64,000 nucleotides of DNA from an uncultured Actinomycetota bacterium (GTDB lineage Bacteria > Actinomycetota > Aquicultoria > CAYFWW01), in assembly GCA_964346985.1 (NCBI GenBank), contig CAYFWW010000048.1:291-64290 (forward strand), in the 5' to 3' direction. The notes under the pieces were generated by a model. The model was not told the DNA's origin and searched no databases. It worked only from the letters and a program-made list of their open reading frames with translations. Every line of letters starts with the position of its first letter. Position 1 is the first letter of the stretch. The translations under genes were made by a program, and so were the position numbers. This document shows, piece after piece, positions 32,310 to 59,627 of the stretch.

Positions 32310-34127
32310 TTGAAAGAGTTTTTTAATTTTACCCTGAGTAAAAAACTGGCCATAATTATAATTCTAATATTGTCCTTGATTATAGTAATTGGATCATACA
32401 TTCATATCCGTAGCATGCAAGATTCATTCATCAGGTTAAATACTCTTCATATTCAAAATAATGTTCATTTCTTTGAGGAAATAATTGAGGAAAGGGGTTT
32501 AGATAAAGAGTATCTTCAGCATAAGATTGTTGAAATTAATGATTTCCAAGAGTACCAGGAGATATTTATTGTCGATAATAATTTTCAAATAATTGCTCAT
32601 AGCAAACCTAATAAAGTTAACCAGTTTTATAAAAATCCAGATATTAAAAAGTCTATAAAAAAAGAAGAGATCGTTTATGCAATAGAAACTCATGAGGAAA
32701 AAGGAAAAAACATTAGGATGCTGGATTTTGCTTTTCCAATCCGTCGTTATGGGCAAATAATTGGGGCCGGCGAAGCTAGAATTAGCCTCAATTATCTCAA
32801 TAACGAAATTAACAGCTATGTTCGCGAAACAATCTTATATGTCTTGTTGTTTTTATTATTCTTTATTCCACTCTCTCGATATTACTATATCAGAGTATTT
32901 TCTTTACCCTTAAATTCATTAGTAACAGCAACAAAAAAGGTAGCTGAGGGTGATTTAGATTATAAGATGGAAAAATTGGCCGGCAAAGAGATTAACATGT
33001 TAGCTAAATCATTTAACGACATGACCTTAAAACTTCGAAAATCAAATGTTGATTTGAAACATAGAATTATTGAATTATCAACCCTGAATAAGATTAGCAC
33101 GGCCATTTCATCTACCCTAGATCTCGATAAAGTTTTAAACATGATTTTAGATGATGCTATTAAATTGACTAACGCTGAAAATGGCTCGATAATGCTCTAC
33201 GATAAAGAAAAAGATCTTCTTTCTATAGAGGTTGCCCGTGGTTTACCTCAGAATGTCATTGACAATTATTCAGTTAAAAGCGGAGAAGGAATAGCCGGTT
33301 GGGTTCTAAAAAACAAAAAACCATTGATACTTGAGAGTGGCCTCCAGAATGAGATCAATTTTAAGGGAGATAATTCAAATATTAAAGATGCTTTATCGGT
33401 TCCCCTACACGTCCAAAATAAAATAATTGGTGTTTTAAATATAAGCAATAAATATTCCGGTACATTTAATCAAGATGACCTATCTCTTCTGGCCACTCTA
33501 GCCAATCAAGCTTCTAACGCCATAGAAAATGCCAGATTATATGAAGAAATCGAAAACCTCTATTTAAGTACAATTTCCGCTCTTGCAGCGGCAGTTGAAG
33601 CGAAAGAGCCATATACTCATGGTCATTCTGAAAGAGTTTCCAGGCTGGCAACTCGCTTGGCTGAAGAAATTGGAATTGATGAAAATGAATTAAAAGGAAT
33701 CAAAACAGCCGGTCTGCTTCATGATATCGGAAAGATTGGAATTTCTGAAAAAATCCTTCTTAAACCTGGCAAACTCACTGCCAAAGAGTTTGGTGAGATG
33801 AAAAAACATCCGGAAATCGGACAAAAAATCCTAAAAGCTGTTGAATTTCCATGGGAAGTCACTAATCCTATCGCCCAGCATCATGAAAGAGTTGACGGAA
33901 AAGGATATCCTGCAGGCCTAAAATCTAAGAACATCTCACTTCAAGGAAAAATTATAACAATAGCAGATTCCTATGATGCCATGACTTCAGTACGCCCTTT
34001 TAGAAAAAAAGTGAAGACTAAAAAGGAGGCAATTAAAGAGTTAAACAGTTGTTCAGGATCTCAATTTGATAGTGAGCTAATTGAGGTATTTATCTTTTTA
34101 TTAGAAAATAAACTAATCAGTGCTTAA
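32310..34127 (+). CDS. Membrane-anchored HAMP-GAF-HD-GYP c-di-GMP phosphodiesterase
   Basis: TM helix, HAMP (VTATKKVAEGDLDY), GAF and HD-GYP (HGHSERV...HDIGKIGI...HHERVDGKGYP). TTG start after AAGGAGA. Confidence 0.8.
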   Translation: MKEFFNFTLSKKLAIIIILILSLIIVIGSYIHIRSMQDSFIRLNTLHIQNNVHFFEEIIEERGLDKEYLQHKIVEINDFQEYQEIFIVDNNFQIIAHSKPNKVNQFYKNPDIKKSIKKEEIVYAIETHEEKGKNIRMLDFAFPIRRYGQIIGAGEARISLNYLNNEINSYVRETILYVLLFLLFFIPLSRYYYIRVFSLPLNSLVTATKKVAEGDLDYKMEKLAGKEINMLAKSFNDMTLKLRKSNVDLKHRIIELSTLNKISTAISSTLDLDKVLNMILDDAIKLTNAENGSIMLYDKEKDLLSIEVARGLPQNVIDNYSVKSGEGIAGWVLKNKKPLILESGLQNEINFKGDNSNIKDALSVPLHVQNKIIGVLNISNKYSGTFNQDDLSLLATLANQASNAIENARLYEEIENLYLSTISALAAAVEAKEPYTHGHSERVSRLATRLAEEIGIDENELKGIKTAGLLHDIGKIGISEKILLKPGKLTAKEFGEMKKHPEIGQKILKAVEFPWEVTNPIAQHHERVDGKGYPAGLKSKNISLQGKIITIADSYDAMTSVRPFRKKVKTKKEAIKELNSCSGSQFDSELIEVFIFLLENKLISA

Positions 34128-47706: not shown

Positions 47707-48885
47707 TTAGGTTCTTCTTTGTAACTTATCTCTTTGTGCTATATCTATAATTTGATTGTTTCTTCTTTCAACTAGTATATCTTTTGCTGTTTTTCCCTCG
47801 TTGACAGAACTTCGGCGATCAATTCTGTATACCTGTGAAAGCACATAATCTTGAGTTTGTTTATTGTCGCTTGTGGACCTTATTAATTCAGCAATCAGCC
47901 CAGTTAAAATAATTTGGAGGCCAGTTATTAGCAAAAGTACTCCCAGCATAAGCAATGGCCTATTTCCTATGCTTTGATTAAATAAAATTTTAGCTCCGGA
48001 TAAATAAAGCAAAACTGCCGACCCAATTGAAAACAAAGATATTCCAAATAAGCCAAAAAGATGTAAGGGTCGTCCATAATAACGAGAGATCATAACGACT
48101 GTAAATAAATCCATAAATCCTCTATAGAAACGATTATATCCATATTTAGAATGCCCGTGGACCCTAGGATGGTGCTTCACTGGAACCTCAGTAATAATAT
48201 AACCTTTGTAGGCTGCCAATACTGGGAAAAAACGATGCATCTCACCATAGCAATGTGGAATAAGGTTTCTTATCACATTCCACCGATATGCCTTTAGACC
48301 AGAGTTTATATCGTGCAAATTCACTCTGGATAATTTGCGCTCCATATAATTAAATACTTTAGAAGGAAATGTTTTAGAAACCGGATCTTGCCGCTCCTTT
48401 TTCCAACCAACGACCACATCATAACCTTCTTCAATCTTCTGAATCAGTTTAGGTATTTCAGCTGGCTCATCTTGAAGGTCTGCATCCATAGTGACAATGA
48501 TATTACCCGTTGCAAAAGTAAATCCGCTAGCAAAAGCTGACGCTTTTCCAAAGTTGCGTCTATGCCTTAAAAGTTTTACTTCCTCATCCTTAGAGGCTAT
48601 TTCAGTCAAAATCAACCAAGAATTATCTGTTGAACCATCATCAATAAAAATTATTTCTGCATTTAATCCTAATAGATTGATGGTATCCTTCATTTTTTTA
48701 TATAGCGGCCGAAGGTTCTCCGCCTCATTTAGAAGTGGGATAACTATCGATAAGTCTAGTGGTTTTTTCAAACCTTCTTCCTCTGGGTACTGTATTCTTA
48801 TGTTATTTAAGTGTGATTTCAAGAAGGACTCCTTGTTTTCTTTTATATTTTTCTCACCCATTATATTCGTCAGATATTGAATCAA
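47707..48885 (-). CDS. GT2 polyprenyl-phosphate hexose synthase (Dpm1/GtrB/ArnC-like) with C-terminal TM helices
   Basis: LSIVIPLLNEAENL...IFIDDGSTD...DADLQD GT-A motifs, followed by 2-3 TM helices. Confidence 0.8.
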   Translation of the reverse strand: MIQYLTNIMGEKNIKENKESFLKSHLNNIRIQYPEEEGLKKPLDLSIVIPLLNEAENLRPLYKKMKDTINLLGLNAEIIFIDDGSTDNSWLILTEIASKDEEVKLLRHRRNFGKASAFASGFTFATGNIIVTMDADLQDEPAEIPKLIQKIEEGYDVVVGWKKERQDPVSKTFPSKVFNYMERKLSRVNLHDINSGLKAYRWNVIRNLIPHCYGEMHRFFPVLAAYKGYIITEVPVKHHPRVHGHSKYGYNRFYRGFMDLFTVVMISRYYGRPLHLFGLFGISLFSIGSAVLLYLSGAKILFNQSIGNRPLLMLGVLLLITGLQIILTGLIAELIRSTSDNKQTQDYVLSQVYRIDRRSSVNEGKTAKDILVERRNNQIIDIAQRDKLQRRT

Positions 48886-50278: not shown

Positions 50279-50659
50279 TTATTTATCTGGAAATTTTGAA
50301 ATGATTTCTTGTGGTGAAAAATTAGTTTGCCTTATTACTTCTAAAAACTTCTCAATATGGTTTAAGCTAATATCGGGAGGATTATAAGTAAATACTTCCG
50401 GTAATTCCTTCCCTTGTGATATTTTTTGGAGAACATTCTTTTTAATCAATTCGTCTACCGATTTTTCTAAATCCTTCTTGTCTCGACCTAAGAATACTGA
50501 CAATCTTTCCACTGTAAATAATGTATAAGGATTATAATGATAAAACTTAATCAGCTCCCAGCTTATATTTGAATCACCCAGATAAGCAACGTATTTTCTG
50601 ACAGACTCATCTATGTTGTTTACAAGTTCTATTACTTTTTTACCTCTTTCGTTTTTCAC
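50279..50659 (-). CDS. Hypothetical small protein, translationally coupled partner of the KaiC-like ATPase
   Basis: 126 aa, no recognisable motif; 4-nt overlap with the upstream ATPase gene. Confidence 0.4.
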   Translation of the reverse strand: MKNERGKKVIELVNNIDESVRKYVAYLGDSNISWELIKFYHYNPYTLFTVERLSVFLGRDKKDLEKSVDELIKKNVLQKISQGKELPEVFTYNPPDISLNHIEKFLEVIRQTNFSPQEIISKFPDK

Positions 50660-51405
50660 AGTTTTTTCTCCGGCATCATAATTAACCTAGAGGAACCTGA
50701 TAGGATATTTTCTCTATTAATAAATTTATCTTTAATTAAAAAACCATTATTTCCAATCTCATAGCTTAAAATATCTAGACTGTGAGTGCTTCCCCTAATC
50801 TTCAATGCAACCATGGCCATGTCTATCTTACTGCCTGCTTCGACGTACTGCAGAAAAAAAACATTATCAACTGCATAAGCCAAAGGCGAATTAAGCAAAT
50901 TCTCATGGCTAAACAGTCTTGGTACATCATAAGTATAAACTGAAGTTAAATTTAATCTTCTGCAGCTATTTAATATACTATTATAATGATTTCTTAAAGA
51001 GAACGGTTCTTTATATAACATTTTTAAATTGGAAATAGAATCAAAGGCAATTATTTCAGGATTATTTTCATCAACTATCCTATCAAAAAAGCCCCCTGTT
51101 TTCTCCAATTCCATTTGAAGAATTTCTGGGGAAGTAAAAATAATCTTCAATTTCTTTTCATCTTCAAGCCGTCGGAAATCCCAACCAAAATTTAATGCAT
51201 CACGATATATAATTTCAGGAAATTCCTCAAATGTTACCAGTATTGCCGGGGAATTTGAATAGATAGCTCCATTATAAAGAAACTGTAGGCACATAGTTGT
51301 TTTGCCTGTTACTGGAGGTCCTGCAATCAAAGTAGTACTTTTACGATGAAACCCGCCGCCTATAATACTATCGAGTTTCTTTATACCAGTAGATATTTTA
51401 TCCAT
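50656..51405 (-). CDS. KaiC/RadA-like single-domain RecA-superfamily ATPase (COG0467-like)
   Basis: Walker A GPPVTGKT, Walker B IIAFDSIS; KaiC-domain-like architecture. Confidence 0.6.
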   Translation of the reverse strand: MDKISTGIKKLDSIIGGGFHRKSTTLIAGPPVTGKTTMCLQFLYNGAIYSNSPAILVTFEEFPEIIYRDALNFGWDFRRLEDEKKLKIIFTSPEILQMELEKTGGFFDRIVDENNPEIIAFDSISNLKMLYKEPFSLRNHYNSILNSCRRLNLTSVYTYDVPRLFSHENLLNSPLAYAVDNVFFLQYVEAGSKIDMAMVALKIRGSTHSLDILSYEIGNNGFLIKDKFINRENILSGSSRLIMMPEKKL

Positions 51406-51480: not shown

Positions 51481-52071
51481 ATGATTAAGAATTATAATAA
51501 TCTACTTAAGAATAAAGTAAAGAGCGAGCTCGCCTATTTAAATAATAAATTGGATAAAATTTCATCAAAGTGGAGGGGGACGGGGCCTGTAATCCAAGCC
51601 GGAAACCCTATGGCAAGTTTATTTTTATTAGTAGAAATTCCTGTTTTAACCTCGGATGGCAAAGCAGAACTACTTTCAAATCAAGCAAAGAAAGCCTTAT
51701 ATTCATCTCTCGAAAGATTAAATATTAGCAAAGAATACATCTACATTAGTTCACTATATAAGTTCTATTTCGATTCCGGTTTTAAGCCTGGAATCCAAGG
51801 CTTAAATAATCTTAAGGAGCTTTTAGAACTTGAGATATCAATAATAGAACCCGAAGTGCTGATTGGATTTCACCCAAATGTAACTAAATGGCTTAAAGAT
51901 ATCTATCAGAATAATTTCCAATTACATCAAGGCAAAGATAAAAATTGCTTACTGCGTGGTGAGACAATCTATTTTGAAACTGTAAGTTTTGAAGAAGCTT
52001 TAAAGGATATTAATCAAAAAAGGAGGCTTTGGAAAGTATTAGTTAAAGTCGCTAAACTAATACTTGATTAG
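51481..52071 (+). CDS. Divergent UDG-superfamily (family 4/5-like) protein with non-canonical motifs
   Basis: Architecture matches UDG family 4: GTGP..A...FLLVE.P (motif A region; GEAPG replaced by EIPVL) and GFHPN (motif B HPS-like). Confidence 0.35.
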   Translation: MIKNYNNLLKNKVKSELAYLNNKLDKISSKWRGTGPVIQAGNPMASLFLLVEIPVLTSDGKAELLSNQAKKALYSSLERLNISKEYIYISSLYKFYFDSGFKPGIQGLNNLKELLELEISIIEPEVLIGFHPNVTKWLKDIYQNNFQLHQGKDKNCLLRGETIYFETVSFEEALKDINQKRRLWKVLVKVAKLILD

Positions 52072-52079
52072 AACTTAGA

Positions 52080-52262
52080 TTATCCTTTCAGTTCTATGCA
52101 CTCCATCGTACATTCATCTACGCATTGCTCACAACCATCACAATCATTTGTTCTCACAGGAATACATATATCACCATCAAATTCATACACTTCATTTGGG
52201 CAAATATCAACACAAACTCCACAACCTGAACATTCACCAAAATCGACAACCGGTTTCGTCAT
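52080..52262 (-). CDS. 4Fe-4S ferredoxin (2 x CxxCxxCxxxCP)
   Basis: CSGCGVCVDICP and CDGCEQCVDEC clusters. Start set at MTKP (52260-52262), which follows a GGGA RBS. Confidence 0.75.
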   Translation of the reverse strand: MTKPVVDFGECSGCGVCVDICPNEVYEFDGDICIPVRTNDCDGCEQCVDECTMECIELKG

Positions 52263-52368
52263 CTTTATTTCAATCCCTTTGAATAGTTTTAAAACAAGAA
52301 TATATTGTAATAGAAATCTATAATTTAACAAGCCAGCCTTTATAAAATTATCTATATTTCAAATTAAT

Positions 52369-54297
52369 TTAGGCAAGCTGGTTTTTTTCAAAATCTAAGA
52401 GAATTTTTTCAATCTCCTGAGCAAATTCTTCCCAATTCAGTTTTTTAGCTTTAGAGTATGCCTTGTCTAACTCTTTCTTAGTTTTAGAATAATCACCAAT
52501 TAAATAATAAAATCTGCATAATTCAAGTTGAAAGGTTAAAGATAACTTAGGATCTTTAATTAAACCAATAATCATTTGAAAGCTGGAAATCGCTTCCTTA
52601 TATGAACCCATTTCAAATTGATCATAGGCTTTATGTATTAAGTCATTAATTATTTTGCTTGTATATTCCGACTCATCGATGAAAGTTGAAACTTTTTTTT
52701 CCAACTTATGAAAAGATACTTCTTTCTCTTCTTTCTCTTCAACCAGAGGGCGAAGATCCTCTCTAATTATCATTTGAATAACTTTATCTTTATCAGCCAC
52801 TTCTTCTTGAACAGTTGAAATTTGACTTGCTCCAGATAATCTAATAAATCCACTTAGCAGAACTATATGGACAATAGCAAAAGCTACATTGTTCATAATA
52901 GAAGGATTGGCCCCAAACCATAACATACCGAAAAATATAGCAATAATCATTAACAAAGTCATAAAGATTTGAGGATATATATGTGGAGTTATGCCTTTTA
53001 TATCAACTCCTTTAGGAGTAACAACAAAACCAAGTTTTCTACCAAAAATAATAGACAGCCAGGCCTTTATATGGACTGGGAACGAACAAAGCGAAAACCA
53101 TAAAGCTCTAAATGTCAGCGTGCCATTGGCCGCATATGCCAGGAAGACAATGTTTATAAAGAGATACGGGAAAAAATGCAACGGATACATATCAGCTTCT
53201 TTTATTGGTTTGATTCCAAAGAAAAGCATGAGTATAGGCATTATTGCATAAATCAAGTAAGCCCATCCTGTAAACCAGTATATTCCGCTTAGAAAATATT
53301 GAATCTTTTGAGGAATTGTTAGATTCTTCAATAATGTATTTTCCTTTATAAATATCTCTAAACCTCCCCGAGCCCATCTAAGCTGCTGGCTAAAATATGA
53401 ACCTACATCTTCTGGTCCTAGGCCTTCTGCCAAAACCTCTGGGTAATAGACTGATTTCCAGCCACGCTCGTGCAGTTTGATGGATAATAATAAATCTTCT
53501 GTAATGGATTCTTCTGGGAGATAACCTATCTGGCGCAGTGATTCGCGGCGAAATACAACATTAGTTCCACAACAAAAAGCTGCGCCTAGCTTATATTTTC
53601 CACGGCAAATTGGGCCATAAAATAACTCTTGTTGTTCAAATGCCCCAGCTGCAATTTTATTCTCCGACTTATTCTTATAAAATTGAGGTGTCTGAACAAA
53701 AGCAATTTTTTCATCTTTGAAAAAACCTAATGTTTTTAAAAGAAACCCAGGATAAGGTGCATGATCACAATCAAAAAAAACAACATAGTGCCCATCTGTC
53801 TGTTTAAGTGCATTATTAATATTTCCAGCCTTGGCTCCCTTACGATCAGGTCTTGAAAAGTATTTAACATGGTATCGAGAAGCTAGTTTTTTAATCATAT
53901 CTGAGGGGCCGTCATCAAGAATATATATCTCTTTATTTGGATGGATAATATTACTTACTGCCTTAATTGTATTTTCTACAATTTCAATAGGTTCATTATA
54001 AACAGGAATAAGAATATCAACCGGTTTAAACCAGATATCTTTGGAAATCTTCACCTGGTCTGGCCATTTCTGATTCAAAGCAGTATACCAAAATCCACTG
54101 ATCTGGATAAAATTAAATAACTCAGCTGAAATCAGTAATATATACAAAACAATATGATCAGGCCGTTTAGAATCCAACATCCAGCTGAAATAATATATGG
54201 CTGCAAAGATTCCAAGAATTGTAAAAACTTTCAAGGAACGTAGGTATCTACTTCTTTCACTTTCAATAGTAAAATTTCTATTTTCCATAAATCTCAT
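52369..54297 (-). CDS. Cellulose-synthase-like processive GT2 (BcsA/CesA-type D,D,D,QxxRW) lacking a PilZ domain, with a novel C-terminal module
   Basis: DDG, DCDH, TED and QQLRW motifs and multi-TM C-terminal half. No RxxxR/DxSxxG PilZ motifs. The C-terminal 86 aa resemble the C-terminus of the 57834..58646 protein. Confidence 0.8.
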   Translation of the reverse strand: MRFMENRNFTIESERSRYLRSLKVFTILGIFAAIYYFSWMLDSKRPDHIVLYILLISAELFNFIQISGFWYTALNQKWPDQVKISKDIWFKPVDILIPVYNEPIEIVENTIKAVSNIIHPNKEIYILDDGPSDMIKKLASRYHVKYFSRPDRKGAKAGNINNALKQTDGHYVVFFDCDHAPYPGFLLKTLGFFKDEKIAFVQTPQFYKNKSENKIAAGAFEQQELFYGPICRGKYKLGAAFCCGTNVVFRRESLRQIGYLPEESITEDLLLSIKLHERGWKSVYYPEVLAEGLGPEDVGSYFSQQLRWARGGLEIFIKENTLLKNLTIPQKIQYFLSGIYWFTGWAYLIYAIMPILMLFFGIKPIKEADMYPLHFFPYLFINIVFLAYAANGTLTFRALWFSLCSFPVHIKAWLSIIFGRKLGFVVTPKGVDIKGITPHIYPQIFMTLLMIIAIFFGMLWFGANPSIMNNVAFAIVHIVLLSGFIRLSGASQISTVQEEVADKDKVIQMIIREDLRPLVEEKEEKEVSFHKLEKKVSTFIDESEYTSKIINDLIHKAYDQFEMGSYKEAISSFQMIIGLIKDPKLSLTFQLELCRFYYLIGDYSKTKKELDKAYSKAKKLNWEEFAQEIEKILLDFEKNQLA

Positions 54298-55895
54298 TCA
54301 CTAAATAAATAAACATCAACATTTGGAAATTTTTTCTTAACTTCATTCGTATATTTATATCTTAAGATAGTCCTGCTTCTGAAAGCTGCCCTTTTCACAA
54401 AGCTTCTCTCTTCGAAGCTGGTAATCATCCAAACCCTTTTTTTGTTCTTGTAAGCCTTGTTTAAATCAAAGGATAGTTCATCCATGCTAGACCTTATTGA
54501 ATTATCGGCAGGCTCAACCCTTGGAAAAGCAATCGCTGGGACTTTACCCTTATAGTAATAAAGGAAAACGTTCTTTATATAATAAGGAACGTATATTACA
54601 GCATCATCCTTTTCAAGGTTTTTTTGAACATACGATATCGCTTTTTGGTTATCATAACGAATTCGATTATTGAGGCTAAAAGACTGGTCTGCCCAAAAAA
54701 TAATCGCGCTAATAGCTAAAATAATCATAAAAAGGCGATAATGATTTTTATCACTTATTGAAGAGATTATACAACCAAAGAATACATAGAGTGGAATAGT
54801 ATAGATAGCAATATATCTAACTATAAACATTTCACGATAAAGACCAATAATATACATTAATAAAAGAGGGACCACAATCCCAATAATAAGATAAAGATAT
54901 TTCAGGCCGGGTGGCCTAACAAAATAGACAAGGATAAATAAGATCAACATTAATAAAGGCCATAAGGAAACAAGGTTTGCAGTTATGTCATCGCTATGGA
55001 AACCAAATAGCGACTGGGTAAAAACCATAAGGATTACATTAAAATTATAGTTACTTCCACTGAGTAAATGTTCTTCTGCAATTCCGACTAAATGCCTTGA
55101 AACCAGGACAAACCTTACCCATGGAAGAAAAAGTATTAATATGGAAACCTGAGAACTTATCCAGATACCAGATGTTTTTAATCTTTCTTTCCAGGTTGAG
55201 TAACTTTTTTTATCCTCCTCAAGGTTCGCTTTATTCTGTATAGAGCGAATAAACCAAAAAATAAAGAAAATATTTTGAAAGACAATCATTAATACTCCGA
55301 AATAAGATGTAAATAACATTAAAGTTGTAAACAGAACATATAATAACCAATAAACCAATTTTGCTTTCTCGAAAAGCTTAAACCCAAAATAGAAAGCAAG
55401 TGTGGCCCAGATTAAGAGAATAATATACATCCTTGCATCCTGTGAATACCAAATAAAAAATGGGGAGAAGCTGAATAAAAAAGCTGTGGTGAAGCCTATT
55501 CTTTCATTGAATAATGACTTACAGACAAAATATACCACTAAAACTAAGATCAATCCAAAGAATAATGACATTGACCTAACAGCAAAAGGGCTCTTTCCAA
55601 AAAAACTCATCCAATAATGAAGAGAAAGATGAAAGAGTGGCGGGTGAACGCCGTGTGCCATTGTTGAAATAATGTCTCTTGGGCTCTGGCTTGCTTGTAT
55701 AATGCTTGTGCACTCATCTAACCAAAGGTCACGGGAGTTAATTCCTACCAACCTTAATACAAAAGAATTTATTAGAAGAAATATAACACCAGCAATCTCA
55801 ACTTTAGCCGAATATATTTTTCCAATAATATTTTTCAAATAAACACTTTTTCCTTTTTGAATGTTAATAATATTTTCTACCATAAGAGTCAACAA
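54294..55895 (-). CDS. GT-C fold glycosyltransferase (PMT/ArnT/GT39-GT83-like)
   Basis: More than 10 TM helices; DE motif (WLDEC) in the first extracytoplasmic loop; translationally coupled to the BcsA-like gene. Confidence 0.7.
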   Translation of the reverse strand: MLTLMVENIINIQKGKSVYLKNIIGKIYSAKVEIAGVIFLLINSFVLRLVGINSRDLWLDECTSIIQASQSPRDIISTMAHGVHPPLFHLSLHYWMSFFGKSPFAVRSMSLFFGLILVLVVYFVCKSLFNERIGFTTAFLFSFSPFFIWYSQDARMYIILLIWATLAFYFGFKLFEKAKLVYWLLYVLFTTLMLFTSYFGVLMIVFQNIFFIFWFIRSIQNKANLEEDKKSYSTWKERLKTSGIWISSQVSILILFLPWVRFVLVSRHLVGIAEEHLLSGSNYNFNVILMVFTQSLFGFHSDDITANLVSLWPLLMLILFILVYFVRPPGLKYLYLIIGIVVPLLLMYIIGLYREMFIVRYIAIYTIPLYVFFGCIISSISDKNHYRLFMIILAISAIIFWADQSFSLNNRIRYDNQKAISYVQKNLEKDDAVIYVPYYIKNVFLYYYKGKVPAIAFPRVEPADNSIRSSMDELSFDLNKAYKNKKRVWMITSFEERSFVKRAAFRSRTILRYKYTNEVKKKFPNVDVYLFSE

Positions 55896-56032: not shown

Positions 56033-56125
56033 AGTGGTTGGCAATCACCCGAAAGGGCAAACCCATCTAAAGGTGGGGACGCAAAACCAAGGATCCGAAT
56101 GGATAGCCTGGTTGCCGAAGGTGAG
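56033..56125 (+). ncRNA. c-di-GMP-I (GEMM) riboswitch
   Basis: Conserved GEMM-I blocks: GGGCAAACC, P2 hairpin CCCAUC-UAAA-GGUGGG, GGGACGCAAAACC junction, 3' GGUUGCCGAAGG (compare the GEMM block GGGUUACCGAAGG). GC-rich island in AT-rich DNA directly 5' of the GH26-like gene; its 3' end overlaps the SD (AAGGUG). Confidence 0.75.
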
Positions 56126-56129
56126 AGAG

Positions 56130-57692
56130 TTGAAAACAAATTATAAATTTAAAAAAATATTCTTAATCATAACCAGCTTCTTAATGTTACTTCTGTTTGC
56201 CAGTCCCGTCACAGCCCAGACAACATTACCTGAACCACTCAGAGGAAATACACTTATTGGTTATTTTGTTCCAGGATCCCCGGCAACAAATAACCTAATA
56301 GATTTAGAGACAAAAACCGATCGCAAGGCCGATATTGTTTTATACTATCAAGACTGGACATATGGTTTAATCAATCAGAATGTTCGAAATGTTTTGAATC
56401 ATGGCTCAATTCCACTGCTAACTTGGATACCATGCAAAGGCGGAGCTGGGACAAACCAACCTGATTATCGTTTAAAAAACATTACAAATGGTAAATTCGA
56501 CCAATATTTAAGAGAATCTGCTAGAGCTGCCAGAAACACTGGAGAGACAATCTGGTTAAGGCCTTTCCATGAGATGAACGGTAACTGGTCTTCGTATTCA
56601 GGTACAACCAACGGAAATAGTCCAGAAGATTTTATCCCAGCCTGGCGGCATATAGTTGATATCTTTAGACAAGAAGGAGCAGATAATGTTTTATTTGTCT
56701 GGTCTCCCAATACAAATTCAGTACCTGATACTCCCGAGAATGCCATTAGTGTATACTTCCCGGGTGATGACTATGTAGATATTATTGGAATCGATGGATA
56801 TAATTGGGGCACAAGCCAATCTTGGTCTCATTGGAACTCATTTTATGACACTTTTGTTAAATCGTATAAAACTTGCACTTCTCTAAGCAAAAAACCAATA
56901 ATCATTGCTGAAACAGGCTCGTCAGAAAAAGGTGGAGACAAAGCCGCATGGATTAAAGATACTTTTAACACAATATATAATGATTTTCCACGAATTAAAG
57001 GGCTAGTCTGGTTTAATATCAATAAAGAAACGGACTGGAGAATCGAATCTTCAATAGCTAGTCTAGAATCTTTCAAAAGTATAGTTGCAGAAAACGCAAA
57101 TAGTAAAAATATTATACAATTTGTAATGAAGTTCAACAAAAATACAAGCCAAGATAGAATTGAACAAATACTATATGATTACAACTTAACAGTTATATCC
57201 GGGCCTTCAAAAAATAACTACTACTATTTAGAGACTCAACCGGGAATAAACTTCAATAAACTTGTTTCAGCTCTCTCTGGACTTCCAGAAATTACCAGAA
57301 TAGACCGTAATTATTCTTATCGTGTAAATACAAGTACTGGGTTAGGAGCTGGAGAATCCATAAATAATATATTGGCGGCAAATGATAATTATAAGGGTGG
57401 AGCCAAAGCAGAATCTTCCTTCAGCCAAGCAGCCAACCAAACCTATAATACTTCCCCTATTTTGGAAGATTCTGCTTCACCTCTTTTGGCAAAAGAAAAT
57501 TTATTACAATCATCTTTTAAAATAGATTTTCCAAATAGTCTTTTCAGCAATAGTTTCGCTGTTAATATCTATAAAAAAACAGATAAAGAATCAAGTTACC
57601 TGCCTAATCTGAATCAATTTTCCGCTTTAATTATGCTCATTATAGTTTCCGGGACTTCAGTCCTACTTTATAAACAAAAAATAATGGCATAA
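56130..57692 (+). CDS. GH26-like glycoside hydrolase paralog with signal peptide and C-terminal extension
   Basis: RPFHEMNGNWSSYSG, FVWSPN, YFPGDDYVDIIGIDGYNWG and IIIAETGS motifs. Start set to TTG 56130 (RBS AAGGTG; signal peptide KTNYKFKKIFLIITSFLMLLLFASPVTAQ). The track ORF (from 56034) reads through the riboswitch. Confidence 0.7.
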   Translation: MKTNYKFKKIFLIITSFLMLLLFASPVTAQTTLPEPLRGNTLIGYFVPGSPATNNLIDLETKTDRKADIVLYYQDWTYGLINQNVRNVLNHGSIPLLTWIPCKGGAGTNQPDYRLKNITNGKFDQYLRESARAARNTGETIWLRPFHEMNGNWSSYSGTTNGNSPEDFIPAWRHIVDIFRQEGADNVLFVWSPNTNSVPDTPENAISVYFPGDDYVDIIGIDGYNWGTSQSWSHWNSFYDTFVKSYKTCTSLSKKPIIIAETGSSEKGGDKAAWIKDTFNTIYNDFPRIKGLVWFNINKETDWRIESSIASLESFKSIVAENANSKNIIQFVMKFNKNTSQDRIEQILYDYNLTVISGPSKNNYYYLETQPGINFNKLVSALSGLPEITRIDRNYSYRVNTSTGLGAGESINNILAANDNYKGGAKAESSFSQAANQTYNTSPILEDSASPLLAKENLLQSSFKIDFPNSLFSNSFAVNIYKKTDKESSYLPNLNQFSALIMLIIVSGTSVLLYKQKIMA

Positions 57693-57833
57693 TTAAAAGA
57701 ACATAAATTTATTCTTTAAACACCCCTTTAATTTAAAACGCTTATGATAGAATTACTAATTGAATTATTTTTAACATTTCATTATTATTTGTATTGTTAA
57801 ATAAATTAGAAAGATAAACAGAAAGGTTTTTTA

Positions 57834-58646
57834 ATGGGTCAGATATTAGCAATTGCAATTGCTTTGATTTTCATTTTTGGGTTACTATTACATTTGGTAT
57901 TACGCTTTATATTTAGGATAAATGCTTTAAGAGTTCTGCTGGCAGCTACTATTTCTTCTGTAATCATTCTATTAGTTGTTGTCTTTGTACACCAAAGATT
58001 TAGTTTAAGCAATACAGAACTTTTAATTTTAATATTTCCATTGGCAATTGTTGCTTCTTTTATAATTGCCTGGGCTGAGCAAAGATTTTTAAAGATTTCA
58101 CAAGTTACTCGTGAAATAACACCAACATCCCCAAATATAAAAACTGTACCTTCCGAAATTAAAGATGATATTTCCGAAACTCTAAAAAAAGAGGTTTCAC
58201 CTATTAATAAAACGAAACCGGAACCTCAACCCGTAGCTCCTACACCTATTAAGGAACCTGTTAAAGAAGAAGCCTTGCCTCCAAAAGAAAAGGAAATATA
58301 CCGAGATTTAGTCAAAGAAGAAAAAAAAGAGGTATTCTCAGAAGAATATAGAGGAAAACCTGATGAAGCCTTAGATGTCCTTATTGAGGATGCTTATTCT
58401 CATGTAGATTCTGGAGCAATTGACTCAGCAATTCAATCCTTTCGTTTAGCAATTGTCTTCGCTGAAGACCCAGAAGTGCTAATTCCTTTACAAGTTGAAT
58501 TGGGCAGGCTCTGGTTTATGATCGGTGAAACCAGTAAAGCAGCAAATGAGCTAAAAAAAGCATATGATCTTGCTAAACAAGTTGGATTACAAGATAAAAT
58601 AAGTGAAATCGGTTCTCTTCTAGAAAGCCTTTCTGAAGAGGAGTGA
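57834..58646 (+). CDS. Membrane protein (3 TM) with Lys/Glu/Pro-rich linker and a C-terminal about 80-aa module shared with the BcsA-like GT
   Basis: C-terminal AYSHVDSGAIDSAIQSFRLAIVFAEDPEVLIPLQVELGRLWFMIGETSKAANELKKAYDLAKQ aligns without gaps to the BcsA-like C-terminus (AYDQFEMGSYKEAISSFQMIIGLIKDPKLSLTFQLELCRFYYLIGDYSKTKKELDKAYSKAKK). Confidence 0.55.
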   Translation: MGQILAIAIALIFIFGLLLHLVLRFIFRINALRVLLAATISSVIILLVVVFVHQRFSLSNTELLILIFPLAIVASFIIAWAEQRFLKISQVTREITPTSPNIKTVPSEIKDDISETLKKEVSPINKTKPEPQPVAPTPIKEPVKEEALPPKEKEIYRDLVKEEKKEVFSEEYRGKPDEALDVLIEDAYSHVDSGAIDSAIQSFRLAIVFAEDPEVLIPLQVELGRLWFMIGETSKAANELKKAYDLAKQVGLQDKISEIGSLLESLSEEE

Positions 58647-58745: not shown

Positions 58746-59627
58746 ATGAAACAAAGCAATGAAATCATTGGTTTACCAATAGTTTCAATATCAGAAGGTA
58801 TTAAGACAGGAATAGTTCAAGGAACAATTATTGACCCCCAAACAAAAGAAGTAGCTGCTCTACTTGTTGAAGACGAAGAGTGGTACAAAGGGGCAAAAAT
58901 TGTACCTTTTACAGCAATTCGGAGCATTGGTGCAGACGCTTTGATCATCGATCGAAATGATCAAATTACAGCAGCTTCATCCAATAGTGAAATTGAAGAA
59001 CTTATTAATAGAGCAATAAAAATAATTAATACTCAAATCATTACAACAAGCGGTAAAAATATTGGTGAGGCATCTGAATATATAGTCGACCAAGAAACAG
59101 GAAAAATAGTTTCTGTAGAAATTACCGCTGCTGAAGGGCATCCGTCATCTATTGAAGTAAATCGAATTCTTACTTTCGGAAGAGACGTAATGATTGTTTC
59201 AGAAGAGGGGGAAGCAGCAATTCAAACTGATTTTGAAACTCAAGAAGCTGCTGCTCCAACTGAAATTGAAACCGAAGAGGCTCCCGTGGAAGCAGAAGAT
59301 GTTCCCTACACAAGCACACCTACTTTTGAAGAGGTGAAAAAGGAAGAAGAAGATGTTTCTACGCCGCATCTTCCGGAAGAGGAGTCAGCTGGTACAGCAG
59401 AACCTGCTCCCGCTGAAGCAGAAAAACCATCTGAAGAGGCTGCTAAAAAAACTTTAGAAGAAAGACAACATGACTTTCTAATAGGAAAGACTATGCGTAA
59501 AGATGTTATCGCTGATGATGGTACAGTTATAATCAAAGAAGGAGATACTGTTAACGAAGAAGTAATCCAAAAGGCAAAAGAGAATAATAAATATCTTGAA
59601 CTAACTTTTTCAATAAAAAGAAGTTAG
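58746..59627 (+). CDS. PRC-barrel domain protein with acidic low-complexity linker
   Basis: N-terminal PRC barrel (IGLPIVSISEGIKTGIVQGTIID), a second PRC-like segment at the C-terminus, and an E/A/P-rich middle. Confidence 0.6.
   Translation: MKQSNEIIGLPIVSISEGIKTGIVQGTIIDPQTKEVAALLVEDEEWYKGAKIVPFTAIRSIGADALIIDRNDQITAASSNSEIEELINRAIKIINTQIITTSGKNIGEASEYIVDQETGKIVSVEITAAEGHPSSIEVNRILTFGRDVMIVSEEGEAAIQTDFETQEAAAPTEIETEEAPVEAEDVPYTSTPTFEEVKKEEEDVSTPHLPEEESAGTAEPAPAEAEKPSEEAAKKTLEERQHDFLIGKTMRKDVIADDGTVIIKEGDTVNEEVIQKAKENNKYLELTFSIKRS

Follow-up and report, generated by a model that had tools for sequence, protein, structure and literature searches.

The question raised by this locus is why a BcsA-like synthase and a small membrane protein, encoded on opposite strands of the same neighbourhood, end in the same C-terminal module. 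In synthase-dependent exopolysaccharide systems the usual switch is a c-di-GMP receptor domain (PilZ), carried either by the synthase or by a partner protein, and the module of the synthase described here stands at the site of such a domain. The stretch of DNA analyzed, in the following called the window, comprises 64,000 nucleotides; the features under study are listed in Table 1.

Table 1. Features of the locus in window coordinates (TPR-cap: two TPR repeats and a capping helix; TM: transmembrane)
Feature	Position	Strand	Basis
BcsA-like processive GT2 synthase, 642 aa, no PilZ	52369..54297	-	Pfam GT2/Cellulose_synt, PDB BcsA alignment, motifs
Synthase TPR-cap module, residues ~542-642, helices A1, B1, A2, B2, cap	52372..52674	-	AF2, Foldseek, leave-out HMM
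Glu/Lys-rich linker from last TM helix to module, residues 494-541	52675..52818	-	Composition, motif positions, end of BcsA alignment
GT-C-type (PMT_2) membrane glycosyltransferase	54294..55895	-	Pfam PMT_2 E=7.7e-14
c-di-GMP-I-GGC riboswitch aptamer	56047..56120	+	Rfam RF03167, full-length
Secreted, C-terminally membrane-anchored GH26-like glycoside hydrolase	56130..57692	+	Pfam GH26 E=9.8e-15
Membrane protein, 270 aa	57834-58646	+	Open reading frame
Membrane anchor, three TM helices, residues ~2-94	57834..58103	+	AF2 helices 2-27, 31-56, 60-94; hydropathy
Disordered Pro/Glu/Lys-rich linker, residues ~91-175, ends in EYRGK	58104..58358	+	pLDDT, composition
Second TPR-cap module copy, residues ~176-270	58359..58643	+	AF2 helices, HMM 118 bits
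Tandem PRC-barrel protein, 293 aa: two PRC barrels, acidic linker, conserved ~55-aa C-terminal domain	58746..59627	+	Pfam PRC

The synthase possesses the GT2 catalytic motifs DDG128, DCD176, TED266 and QQLRW304, in addition to FCCGT241, and a TM channel region, which places it among the BcsA-type processive GT2 enzymes. Its GT and TM regions align with BcsA structures at E=3.6e-57. Against NCBIfam CelA it scores 294 bits over profile positions 60-568 of 714, below the cut-off of 699, and is therefore not assigned as a CelA equivalog with cellulose as product. Relatives of the synthase are annotated from an ATG three codons downstream (639 aa), and some homologues are fused to GH26. The alignments stop at residue 699 of E. 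coli BcsA (7lby) and residue 569 of R. sphaeroides BcsA (4hg6), which we take to be the start of the PilZ domain, and linker and tail begin at this point, directly after the last TM helix, in agreement with the site given for the tail in the initial annotation. Homology to BcsA places the tail on the cytoplasmic side. The linker contains REDLR at residues 512-516, and EYTSK (544-548) is located just ahead of helix A1. A Pfam search of the synthase delivered no PilZ match. Because the closest ~120 homologues are ~500 aa long, cover 72-80% of the query and have neither the tail nor PilZ or any other C-terminal domain, the tail has been added to a family without PilZ and is not the result of a swap; the earlier description as an alternative to PilZ does not apply in the evolutionary sense.

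The linker of the 270-aa membrane protein has pLDDT values mostly <50 over residues ~91-168 in the AF2 model and varies in length and sequence among the relatives in alignment A3, in which a Lys/Arg cluster behind TM3 is conserved. By the positive-inside rule the protein is predicted to be N-out/C-in, with a cytoplasmic module. The helices of this module span residues 176-193, 196-209, 213-229, 233-250 and 253-269 with pLDDT 86-94. NCBIfam contains no model for the membrane protein. A Pfam match of its TM region to 'MENTAL', whose E-value of 1.5e-4 lies exactly on the cut-off, was attributed to the hydrophobic segments and regarded as an artefact.

When the full proteins are compared by compositionally adjusted BLASTP, linker plus tails form the sole significant local alignment (E=4e-15, 29% identity over 141 columns). 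Smith-Waterman alignment of the last ~100 aa of both proteins gives 81 columns without gaps and 30 identities (37%); the score of 144 compares with 26.4 +/- 4.7 in 2000 shuffles (maximum 50), which corresponds to z ~25. The likeness of the two C-termini noted initially is thus real and specific and holds against shuffled controls; the motif string quoted at that time is found in the alignment, and the Glu/Lys-rich linkers described after the last TM segments are present ahead of both modules. The two copies had been located correctly, although their borders were set slightly short on the N-terminal side as judged from the AF2 helices. A family HMM searched against the six-frame translation detects exactly two copies in the window, and both are matched over the whole length of the ~95-aa, five-helix module (membrane protein 118 bits, synthase 116 bits). 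An EYxxK motif ahead of helix A1 is common to both proteins. In the core, the synthase tail is 33% identical to the membrane-protein tail, compared to 72-76% among the orthologues of the membrane protein. The synthase tail and the membrane-protein tails of its own lineage have in common a Tyr at consensus position 9 of the first repeat and Glu and Arg at positions 6 and 9 of the second; when all 17 members of the module family are considered, the Glu alone of these three residues is invariant. According to our own mapping on the CTPR consensus, all three lie on the concave ligand-binding face.

The module consists of two TPR repeats and a capping helix, ~95-100 aa in total, and is modelled as five helices with pLDDT 92.5 and pTM 0.79 (AF2, alignment A2); the single TPR-like hairpin first considered is replaced by this arrangement. 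The family follows the sequence consensus of the 34-residue repeats, and the model shows the superhelix of stacked antiparallel helix pairs closed by a capping helix. Pfam TPR_2 is matched by 15 of the 17 family members (best E=2.5e-8); the two tails of the window itself match Pfam TPR weakly (E=0.002-0.05). Searched against PDB sequences, the family profile matches consensus TPR at 1.9e-23 and Pins/LGN at 4e-9. The top 50 Foldseek hits of the model in the PDB are all TPR or designed helical-repeat proteins with a probability of 0.99-1.00, and the top hits include Pins/LGN, Hop TPR2A, CTPR2 and LpoP; the highest TM-score among them is 0.69 (CTPR2, 1na3), and no match reaches E<=0.001 (best 7.2e-3). 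With an HMM from which the synthase tails were left out, the synthase tail scores 73.9 bits, whereas generic TPR proteins reach <=40 bits per domain. Neither Pfam nor NCBIfam contains a model specific for the family. The module, at first regarded as novel, is thus TPR by sequence profile, Pfam and predicted fold; it is a specific, rare and unnamed subfamily of minimal TPR domains and not a new fold.

With the canonical TPRs (Pfam TPR_1/2/8/12; Pins/LGN, Hop TPR2A, CTPR2/CTPR3) the module shares the helix-turn-helix repeat, the consensus, the C-terminal cap and a concave face. In Pins/LGN, Hop TPR2A and the CTPR proteins the concave face binds peptides. Unlike the canonical domains, the module has two repeats per unit and not the three or more in tandem that typify functional TPR domains, and its length is fixed at ~95 aa. 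Its own conserved residues include EQEI in the cap and a Glu that is invariant in helix A2; a disordered linker tethers it to the membrane, and its gene has a PRC-barrel gene as conserved neighbour. It shares with the PilZ domain of BcsA the position right after the last TM helix on the cytoplasmic side, but PilZ is a beta-barrel, whereas the synthase tail is modelled as all-helical TPR without Pfam PilZ match or (D/N)xSxxG motif, and a lone RxxxR is located in the linker.

An exhaustive search of 1.84 billion representatives delivered 119 hits, of which ~20 contain the whole module. Most of these ~20 proteins combine TM segments and a linker with a module that forms their extreme C-terminal end, and one of them (P0127, lineage L016) chains 8 modules in tandem, which makes up for the two repeats of the single unit. 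P0128 (94 aa), which was considered as a free-standing module, is the tail of an orthologous synthase cut off by a run of N in the scaffold. A word-index search with the synthase tail alone gave no match. No relative was confirmed either when 185,579 species-representative genomes were scanned twice, once with tail alignment A1 and once with membrane-protein alignment A4. A scan of JGI metagenomes detected only the window's own lineage and one relative at 61%. Synthases with the tail occur only in the window lineage and, as an orthologue, on L005; between these two the tail is 53% identical and the TM core 57%, so that the tail is conserved about like the core. Outside the synthases, the closest relatives of the two synthase tails are the membrane-protein tails of their own lineage; for the synthase tail the margin is modest (BLOSUM62 alignment score 137, versus 114 for other tails). 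The synthase copy most probably arose when the membrane-protein tail of the same lineage was duplicated.

The gene directly downstream of the module gene encodes a tandem PRC-barrel protein on the same strand in 9 of 10 informative lineages (the window, L011, L004, L006, L007/8, L013, L015, L016 and L017; spacing 0-108 nt). In the window it begins 100 nt downstream of the membrane-protein gene, and its product matches Pfam PRC in two stretches (E=4.9e-14). The tenth lineage, L012, has a response regulator in place of the PRC gene. The PRC partners of the different lineages belong to one family with a conserved C-terminal domain (alignment A5); the protein of the window is without an NCBIfam model and weakly matches PDB 8qzo, a 'PRC-barrel domain-containing protein' (E=0.0065). 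The normal home of the module subfamily is a two-gene cassette, composed of a membrane-anchored or multi-copy TPR-cap protein followed by a cytoplasmic tandem-PRC protein with the conserved C-terminal domain, and this cassette is spread over divergent, mostly uncultured bacteria. A literature search for TPR/PRC-barrel pairing in bacteria found nothing relevant. The synthase gene has no PRC neighbour; it is located ~4.5 kb from the PRC gene on the opposite strand.

In the window the cassette lies beside a glycan-synthesis cluster, in which the BcsA-like GT2 synthase and a GT-C enzyme are joined by two GH26 hydrolases and a riboswitch of the c-di-GMP-I type. The stop of the GT-C gene overlaps the start of the synthase gene by 4 nt. 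On the other strand, the GH26 gene is followed by the membrane-protein gene and then by the PRC gene. The riboswitch (65.7 bits at a gathering score of 59, E=1.7e-15) abuts a Shine-Dalgarno-like GGTGAGAGAG and the probable TTG start of the GH26 gene at 56130; the GH26-like protein has a signal-peptide-like N-terminus and a hydrophobic C-terminus. Since Rfam indicated no adjoining riboswitch at the cassettes of other lineages, riboswitch control is not general to the TPR-cap/PRC pair. In other lineages the cassette is flanked by genes of the cell envelope (YkuD, VanW/G5, BacA, Tad/T2SS and a GT-C-like PTPS_related protein), and no division genes are found next to the cassette in the window. An HD-GYP-type protein is also encoded in the window.

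We consider it about an even chance (probability roughly 0.5) that this rare TPR-cap subfamily is a docking module for the PRC-barrel protein or its complex and that synthase and membrane protein engage the same partner. Both modules are cytoplasmic by homology to BcsA and by the positive-inside rule, and are tethered to the membrane through a flexible charged linker. A PilZ-less synthase has gained its own TPR-cap copy at the point where BcsA bears PilZ, and the tail would act as a docking domain through which the synthase is plugged into the system of membrane-TPR and PRC-barrel proteins. If the ligand of the TPR-cap is the PRC-barrel protein or a complex formed by it, the two proteins would for this reason share a partner, and placement or activity of glycan synthesis could be coupled to an envelope-associated system. 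From the gene order and the shared module we infer that both tail-bearing proteins probably bind the neighbouring PRC-barrel protein. The common partner proposed in the initial annotation, with PRC involvement, thereby gains strong circumstantial support from the 9 of 10 lineages with the PRC gene next in line; gene adjacency does not tell where on the membrane protein a contact with the PRC protein would lie, or whether there is one. Against this reading stand the response regulator behind the module gene of L012, the distance of the synthase gene from the PRC gene, the modest margin by which the synthase tail resembles the tails of its own lineage, and the archaeal CdpA model treated below, in which the TM domain and not the C-terminal domain faces the PRC proteins. 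The core identity of the two tails is also low, just 33%, at which ligand specificities could have diverged.

The difference between 33% core identity of the two tails and 72-76% among the membrane-protein orthologues would also fit common ancestry without common function, in which the synthase tail acts alone, either as an intramolecular lid or gate of the GT domain that replaces the gating-loop control of PilZ, or on some other client. The junction at the site where PilZ acts in BcsA, and the separate transcription unit of the synthase on the other strand, are in line with this. Nevertheless, both tails keep the Tyr, Glu and Arg mapped to the concave face, and generic TPRs score far lower than the synthase tail in the leave-out HMM, and independent action of the tail is therefore regarded as unlikely; the similar conservation of tail and core between the window and L005 indicates selection and fits the shared-partner reading just as well.

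Direct docking of the tails onto each other, as TPR-cap heterodimer or homo-oligomers, would make the 270-aa protein a regulatory or anchoring subunit of the synthase and would not require PRC as shared ligand. One domain is indeed present on two membrane proteins of the same gene neighbourhood, small capped TPR units can self-associate, with designed CTPR oligomers among the fold hits, and P0127 carries its modules in a chain. In nearly all other lineages, however, the fetched flanks contain only one module-bearing gene, so the module generally needs no second copy in its neighbourhood, and the conserved neighbour is the PRC gene. Docking of tail onto tail is regarded as unlikely.

A role as second-messenger receptor, with linker and TPR binding c-di-GMP or a related dinucleotide in PilZ's stead, would be suggested by the REDLR of the linker, an RxxxR that lies roughly where PilZ has its own RxxxR, by the riboswitch in the cluster and by the HD-GYP-type protein. 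The synthase tail, however, has neither the D/NxSxxG motif nor a beta-barrel nor a PilZ match in Pfam, no RxxxR stands beside the module of the membrane protein, c-di-GMP elements are absent from many of the contexts in which the family is found, and TPR domains are not known to serve as dinucleotide receptors; there is little reason to expect such a function. Chance or compositional likeness of two helical, charged, Lys/Glu-rich tails, or of a generic TPR consensus to which many of the shared identities belong, is refuted by z=25 against shuffles, the BLASTP value of 4e-15 and 74 bits versus <=40 for generic TPRs.

BcsC, PgaA, PelB and AlgK are TPR scaffolds of synthase-dependent exopolysaccharide systems. 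They belong to the same class of secretion systems as the synthase and likewise use TPR modules as scaffolds for interaction. Their TPRs, however, form long arrays of many repeats in the periplasm and are carried by separate export proteins, whereas here a two-repeat cytoplasmic domain is fused to the synthase itself. A TPR docking domain at the PilZ position, shared with a PRC-linked membrane protein, points to control by scaffold recruitment and not by direct nucleotide binding.

PRC-barrel proteins were assigned a cellular role only recently, in archaeal division. Archaeal CdpA is a division-ring anchor that works with the cytoplasmic PRC-barrel proteins CdpB1/CdpB2 (PMC12126565). Compared by architecture only, CdpA resembles the membrane protein in its N-terminal TM anchor, long disordered cytoplasmic linker and small C-terminal domain (PMC12126565). 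This domain has 44 aa and is not described as TPR, and in an AF2 model the TM domain, not the C-terminal domain, contacts SepF and CdpB (PMC12126565). It is conceivable, if doubtful, that TPR-cap and tandem-PRC proteins constitute an unrecognised scaffold for envelope polymer synthesis on the cytoplasmic face of bacteria, a functional counterpart of CdpA/CdpB, in which the synthase 'plug' would localise or activate the enzyme and take over the regulatory position of PilZ, the c-di-GMP input having moved to the riboswitch. The practical impact of a rare family with no cultured host is limited; the two-gene cassette of TM-linker-TPR and tandem PRC defined here beside cell-envelope genes would be a useful lead to a bacterial membrane-anchored partner system for PRC-barrel proteins. 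Another structural parallel is LpoP, the PBP1b activator of Pseudomonas (PDB 6w5q). In this protein, too, a small globular TPR-like domain at the C-terminus is connected to a membrane anchor through a long disordered linker and docks onto a synthase of an envelope polymer. LpoP differs from the module proteins as a periplasmic lipoprotein with a peptidoglycan synthase as target and has no sequence kinship with them beyond the TPR fold.

The BcsA-like GT2 synthase and the small membrane protein of the window share a homologous C-terminal domain. Comparing the full-length proteins by BLASTP yields a single significant local alignment, which spans the linkers and C-terminal tails (29% identity in 141 columns, E=4e-15). 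When the final ~100 residues of each are aligned by Smith-Waterman, 81 columns pair without a gap, 30 of them identical, at a score of 144 versus 26.4 +/- 4.7 in 2000 shuffles (z ~25). The resemblance of the two tails reported in the initial annotation is thus far beyond chance. Both copies lie where they had been placed, but the start had been set too short, as the first helix is predicted to begin ~15 residues further upstream. A family HMM run on the six-frame translation of the window recovered exactly these two copies.

Features of the window and of related loci (window positions unless a locus is named)
Feature	Position	Strand	Remarks
HAMP-GAF-HD_5 (HD-GYP-type) protein	32310-34127	+	
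ArnC/PgfS-like polyprenyl-phosphate GT2	47707-48885		near GT-C (PMT_2)/synthase gene pair
KaiC/RecA-like ATPase and overlapping 126-aa protein	50279-51405	-	ATPase 249 aa; mid glycan cluster
Ferredoxin and family-4 UDG-like genes	51481-52331		
Same gene pair, L005	1225-2018		
Same gene pair, L017	3706-4745		
Synthase	52369-54297	-	642 aa; Pfam GT2/Cellulose_synt domains
Synthase module (structure prediction)	52372-52674	-	residues ~542-641
RxxxR (REDLR) of synthase	52752-52766	-	residues 512-516
GT-C (PMT_2) stop/synthase start overlap	54294-54297		4 nt
c-di-GMP-I-GGC aptamer	56047-56120	+	Rfam RF03167, full-length; 65.7 bits (gathering score 59)
Promoter-like site	57760-57788		upstream of membrane-protein gene
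Membrane protein	57834-58646	+	270 aa
Membrane-protein module (structure prediction)	58359-58643	+	residues ~176-269
Tandem-PRC-barrel gene	58746-59627	+	293 aa
P0127 locus, L016	5001-8418		P0127 itself 823 aa
GAF-GGDEF protein, L001	19446-20813		just beyond the window's right end on syntenic contig

Taken alone, the two tails match Pfam TPR models below threshold only. With a profile of three tail sequences, HMMER searched 1.84 billion cluster representatives exhaustively and found 119 proteins; about 20 match the whole profile of ~100 positions in one stretch, and 17 such whole-module tails align nearly without gaps over 92 core columns (alignment A2). Pfam TPR_2 matches 15 of these 17 tails (best E=2.5e-8), the A2 profile matches consensus TPR proteins (1.9e-23) and Pins/LGN (~4e-9) in the PDB, and an AF2 model built on A2 shows five helices (pLDDT 92.5, pTM 0.79). 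The leading Foldseek PDB matches of this model are all TPR domains (Pins/LGN, Hop TPR2A, CTPR2/3 and LpoP), none at E<=0.001 (best 7.2e-3). The module therefore consists of two TPR repeats, versus the usual three or more of TPR domains, plus a capping helix; it has a known fold and is neither novel in this sense nor the single TPR-like hairpin considered at first.

Within this fold the module (TPR-cap) represents a specific, new subfamily with a new domain architecture. An HMM built from the 15 non-synthase tails scored the left-out window synthase tail at 73.9 bits as a single domain (HMM positions 7-96; E=5.5e-16 at full-library size), and generic multi-TPR proteins, the library's next-best matches, reached at most ~40 bits per domain. 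Neither Pfam nor NCBIfam holds a dedicated model, and the family is rare and found in uncultured lineages. The synthase tail and the membrane-protein tails of its own lineage have in common a Tyr in helix A1 and a Glu and an Arg in helix A2; of the three, the Glu alone does not vary among the 17 A2 members. HMM alignment to consensus TPRs assigns these residues to TPR positions 9, 6 and 9, which on our own mapping onto the CTPR consensus presumably belong to the concave face that binds ligands.

In most family members, which are small proteins, one to four TM helices at the N-terminus are followed by a low-complexity linker (Pro/Ala/Glu/Lys), and the module forms the very C-terminal end; in the variant P0200 the module is N-terminal, ahead of a TM helix, and P0127 is a soluble protein of eight tandem modules with no TM segment. 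In its AF2 model the window membrane protein has three TM helices, a linker predicted to be disordered (residues ~91-168, pLDDT mostly <50) and a confidently predicted tail. Clusters of Lys/Arg, conserved in the family, occupy loop 1 and the stretch that follows TM3 and predict an N-out/C-in topology with a cytoplasmic tail. The synthase possesses all GT2 processive-synthase motifs, and its alignment extends to residue 699 of E. coli BcsA (7lby) and residue 569 of R. sphaeroides BcsA (4hg6), which we take to be the point on the cytoplasmic side where PilZ begins. These end points agree with the initial proposal: the tail is attached at the site that PilZ occupies in BcsA. The module itself is not a PilZ domain, and no PilZ signature was found in the synthase ((D/N)xSxxG absent, no beta-barrel). 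In exopolysaccharide systems (BcsC, PgaA, PelB and AlgK) TPRs, to our knowledge, form periplasmic arrays within export proteins and do not occur as cytoplasmic tails of a synthase as predicted here. A lone RxxxR lies in the charged linker of the synthase, near the position of the RxxxR of BcsA PilZ.

A tandem-PRC-barrel gene lies immediately 3' of the module gene, on the same strand and at 0-108 nt, in the window, in the near-identical contigs L001, L002 and L010 and in L011, a 61% relative. The same arrangement, within the same range of distances, is seen in L004 (P0129), L006 (P0130), L007/L008 (P0161), L013 (P0134), L015 (P0150), L016 (P0127) and L017 (P0204). Among ten informative lineages (two contigs were too short and left out) the sole exception is L012, where a response regulator is found 3' of the module gene. 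Because PRC-domain genes are few per genome, this adjacency cannot be due to chance. The partners form one family, in which a pair of PRC barrels is followed by an acidic linker that varies in length and by a C-terminal domain of ~55 aa that is well conserved (alignment A5). The consensus of this domain in the window, L004, L006, L007, L013, L015 and L016 is RQxxFLxGKxxxxDIxADDGxVIxxxGExVTxEVIEKAKxxKKxLELxFSV, and it has no significant Pfam match (weak TrkA_C, E=0.048). Beyond the PRC gene, the flanks in other lineages carry envelope-related genes: YkuD, PG_binding_4/VanW/G5, BacA, a gene for a PTPS_related membrane protein, and Tad/T2SS genes near a dcw cluster. In L016 the gene after the tandem-PRC gene encodes a PTPS_related membrane protein, and a radical SAM gene of the B12-binding type comes next.

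The best-supported reading is that TPR-cap serves as a cytoplasmic docking module, whose ligand would be the PRC-barrel protein or its assembly. Through its acquired copy the synthase would come to share one partner with the membrane protein. The putative docking via a common partner, as first suggested, is strengthened by the PRC gene standing next in nine of the ten informative lineages. The data show the homology, the fold, the site of attachment, the conserved gene pair and the restricted fusion; binding, a common partner and any functional effect are inferred from them. Alternatively, the homologous tails could associate directly with each other, or the synthase tail could have diverged towards an independent function, for instance closing over the GT domain as an intramolecular lid; a role as nucleotide receptor is unlikely. 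A full-text literature search found no bacterial TPR/PRC-barrel pairing described. The archaeal CdpA with CdpB1/2 resembles the membrane protein in having a TM anchor, a disordered linker, a small C-terminal domain and PRC-barrel partners, a likeness of architecture only; there the TM domain was modelled as the contact site (PMC12126565).

The fusion of tail and synthase is lineage-specific. Neither tail nor PilZ occurs in the best 120 synthase homologues (~500 aa, 43-51% identity, 72-80% of the synthase covered), and the only synthase-sized match in the exhaustive tail search was the window's own cluster. The 94-aa P0128 was rejected as a standalone module, being the tail of the orthologous synthase on L005, cut from its TM region by a scaffold N-run. 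Between L005 and the window the tail is 53% and the TM core 57% identical, so that conservation of the tail is close to that of the enzyme core. Outside the synthases, both synthase tails are most similar, by a modest margin, to the membrane-protein tails of their own lineage, and an EYxxK motif just before helix A1 is common to synthase and membrane protein, which suggests that a duplication of the neighbouring membrane-protein tail gave rise to the synthase tail. Patterns for the tail and the membrane protein found no relatives among 185,579 GTDB species-representative genomes; the window lineage (~35% GC) occurs in metagenome assemblies only (JABAOC/JABAOF, Logan ERR14940462/3). Some close synthase homologues (P0071, P0079, P0103, P0105, P0108 and P0111; 43-51% identity, 880-970 aa) carry a C-terminal GH26 domain, so the pairing of GT2 with GH26, which the window has as separate genes, is conserved in this synthase family.

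The cluster comprises, in order, GT4, ArnC-like GT2, GH26a, a KaiC-like ATPase with a small protein that has no family match, a UDG-like gene, ferredoxin, synthase, GT-C (PMT_2), a divergent intergenic region, a riboswitch, GH26b, the membrane-TPR gene and the PRC gene. The stop/start overlap implies translational coupling of the GT-C enzyme and the synthase, and the nearby ArnC/PgfS-like GT2 raises the possibility that the polymer is decorated outside the membrane. The aptamer lies directly 5' of GH26b, its 3' end touching a Shine-Dalgarno-like GGTGAGAGAG, which suggests translational control of GH26b. The in-frame TTG at 56130 just after GGTGAGAGAG, ahead of an N-terminus that resembles a signal peptide, is probably where GH26b truly starts; the mechanical ORF opens at GTG 56034 and reads through the riboswitch, and the public gene call (552 aa, L001) is equally over-extended. 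GEMM-I RNAs are mostly c-di-GMP sensors, with rare variants sensing c-AMP-GMP (PMC7266159). The HD-GYP-type and GAF-GGDEF proteins make c-di-GMP turnover enzymes probable in this organism. The stretch from GH26b to the membrane-protein gene shows no terminator-like site, and promoter-like sites such as the one upstream of the latter are no commoner here than in shuffles; the riboswitch might also govern the membrane-protein and PRC genes. Neither a GT2 synthase nor a riboswitch was found at the PRC-adjacent module loci of the other lineages. Genes for a small ferredoxin and a family-4 UDG-like protein adjoin the module gene in the window and L005 and also in L017, which is distant. An older Fer4/UDG/TM-TPR/PRC neighbourhood may have received the window's glycan genes by insertion.
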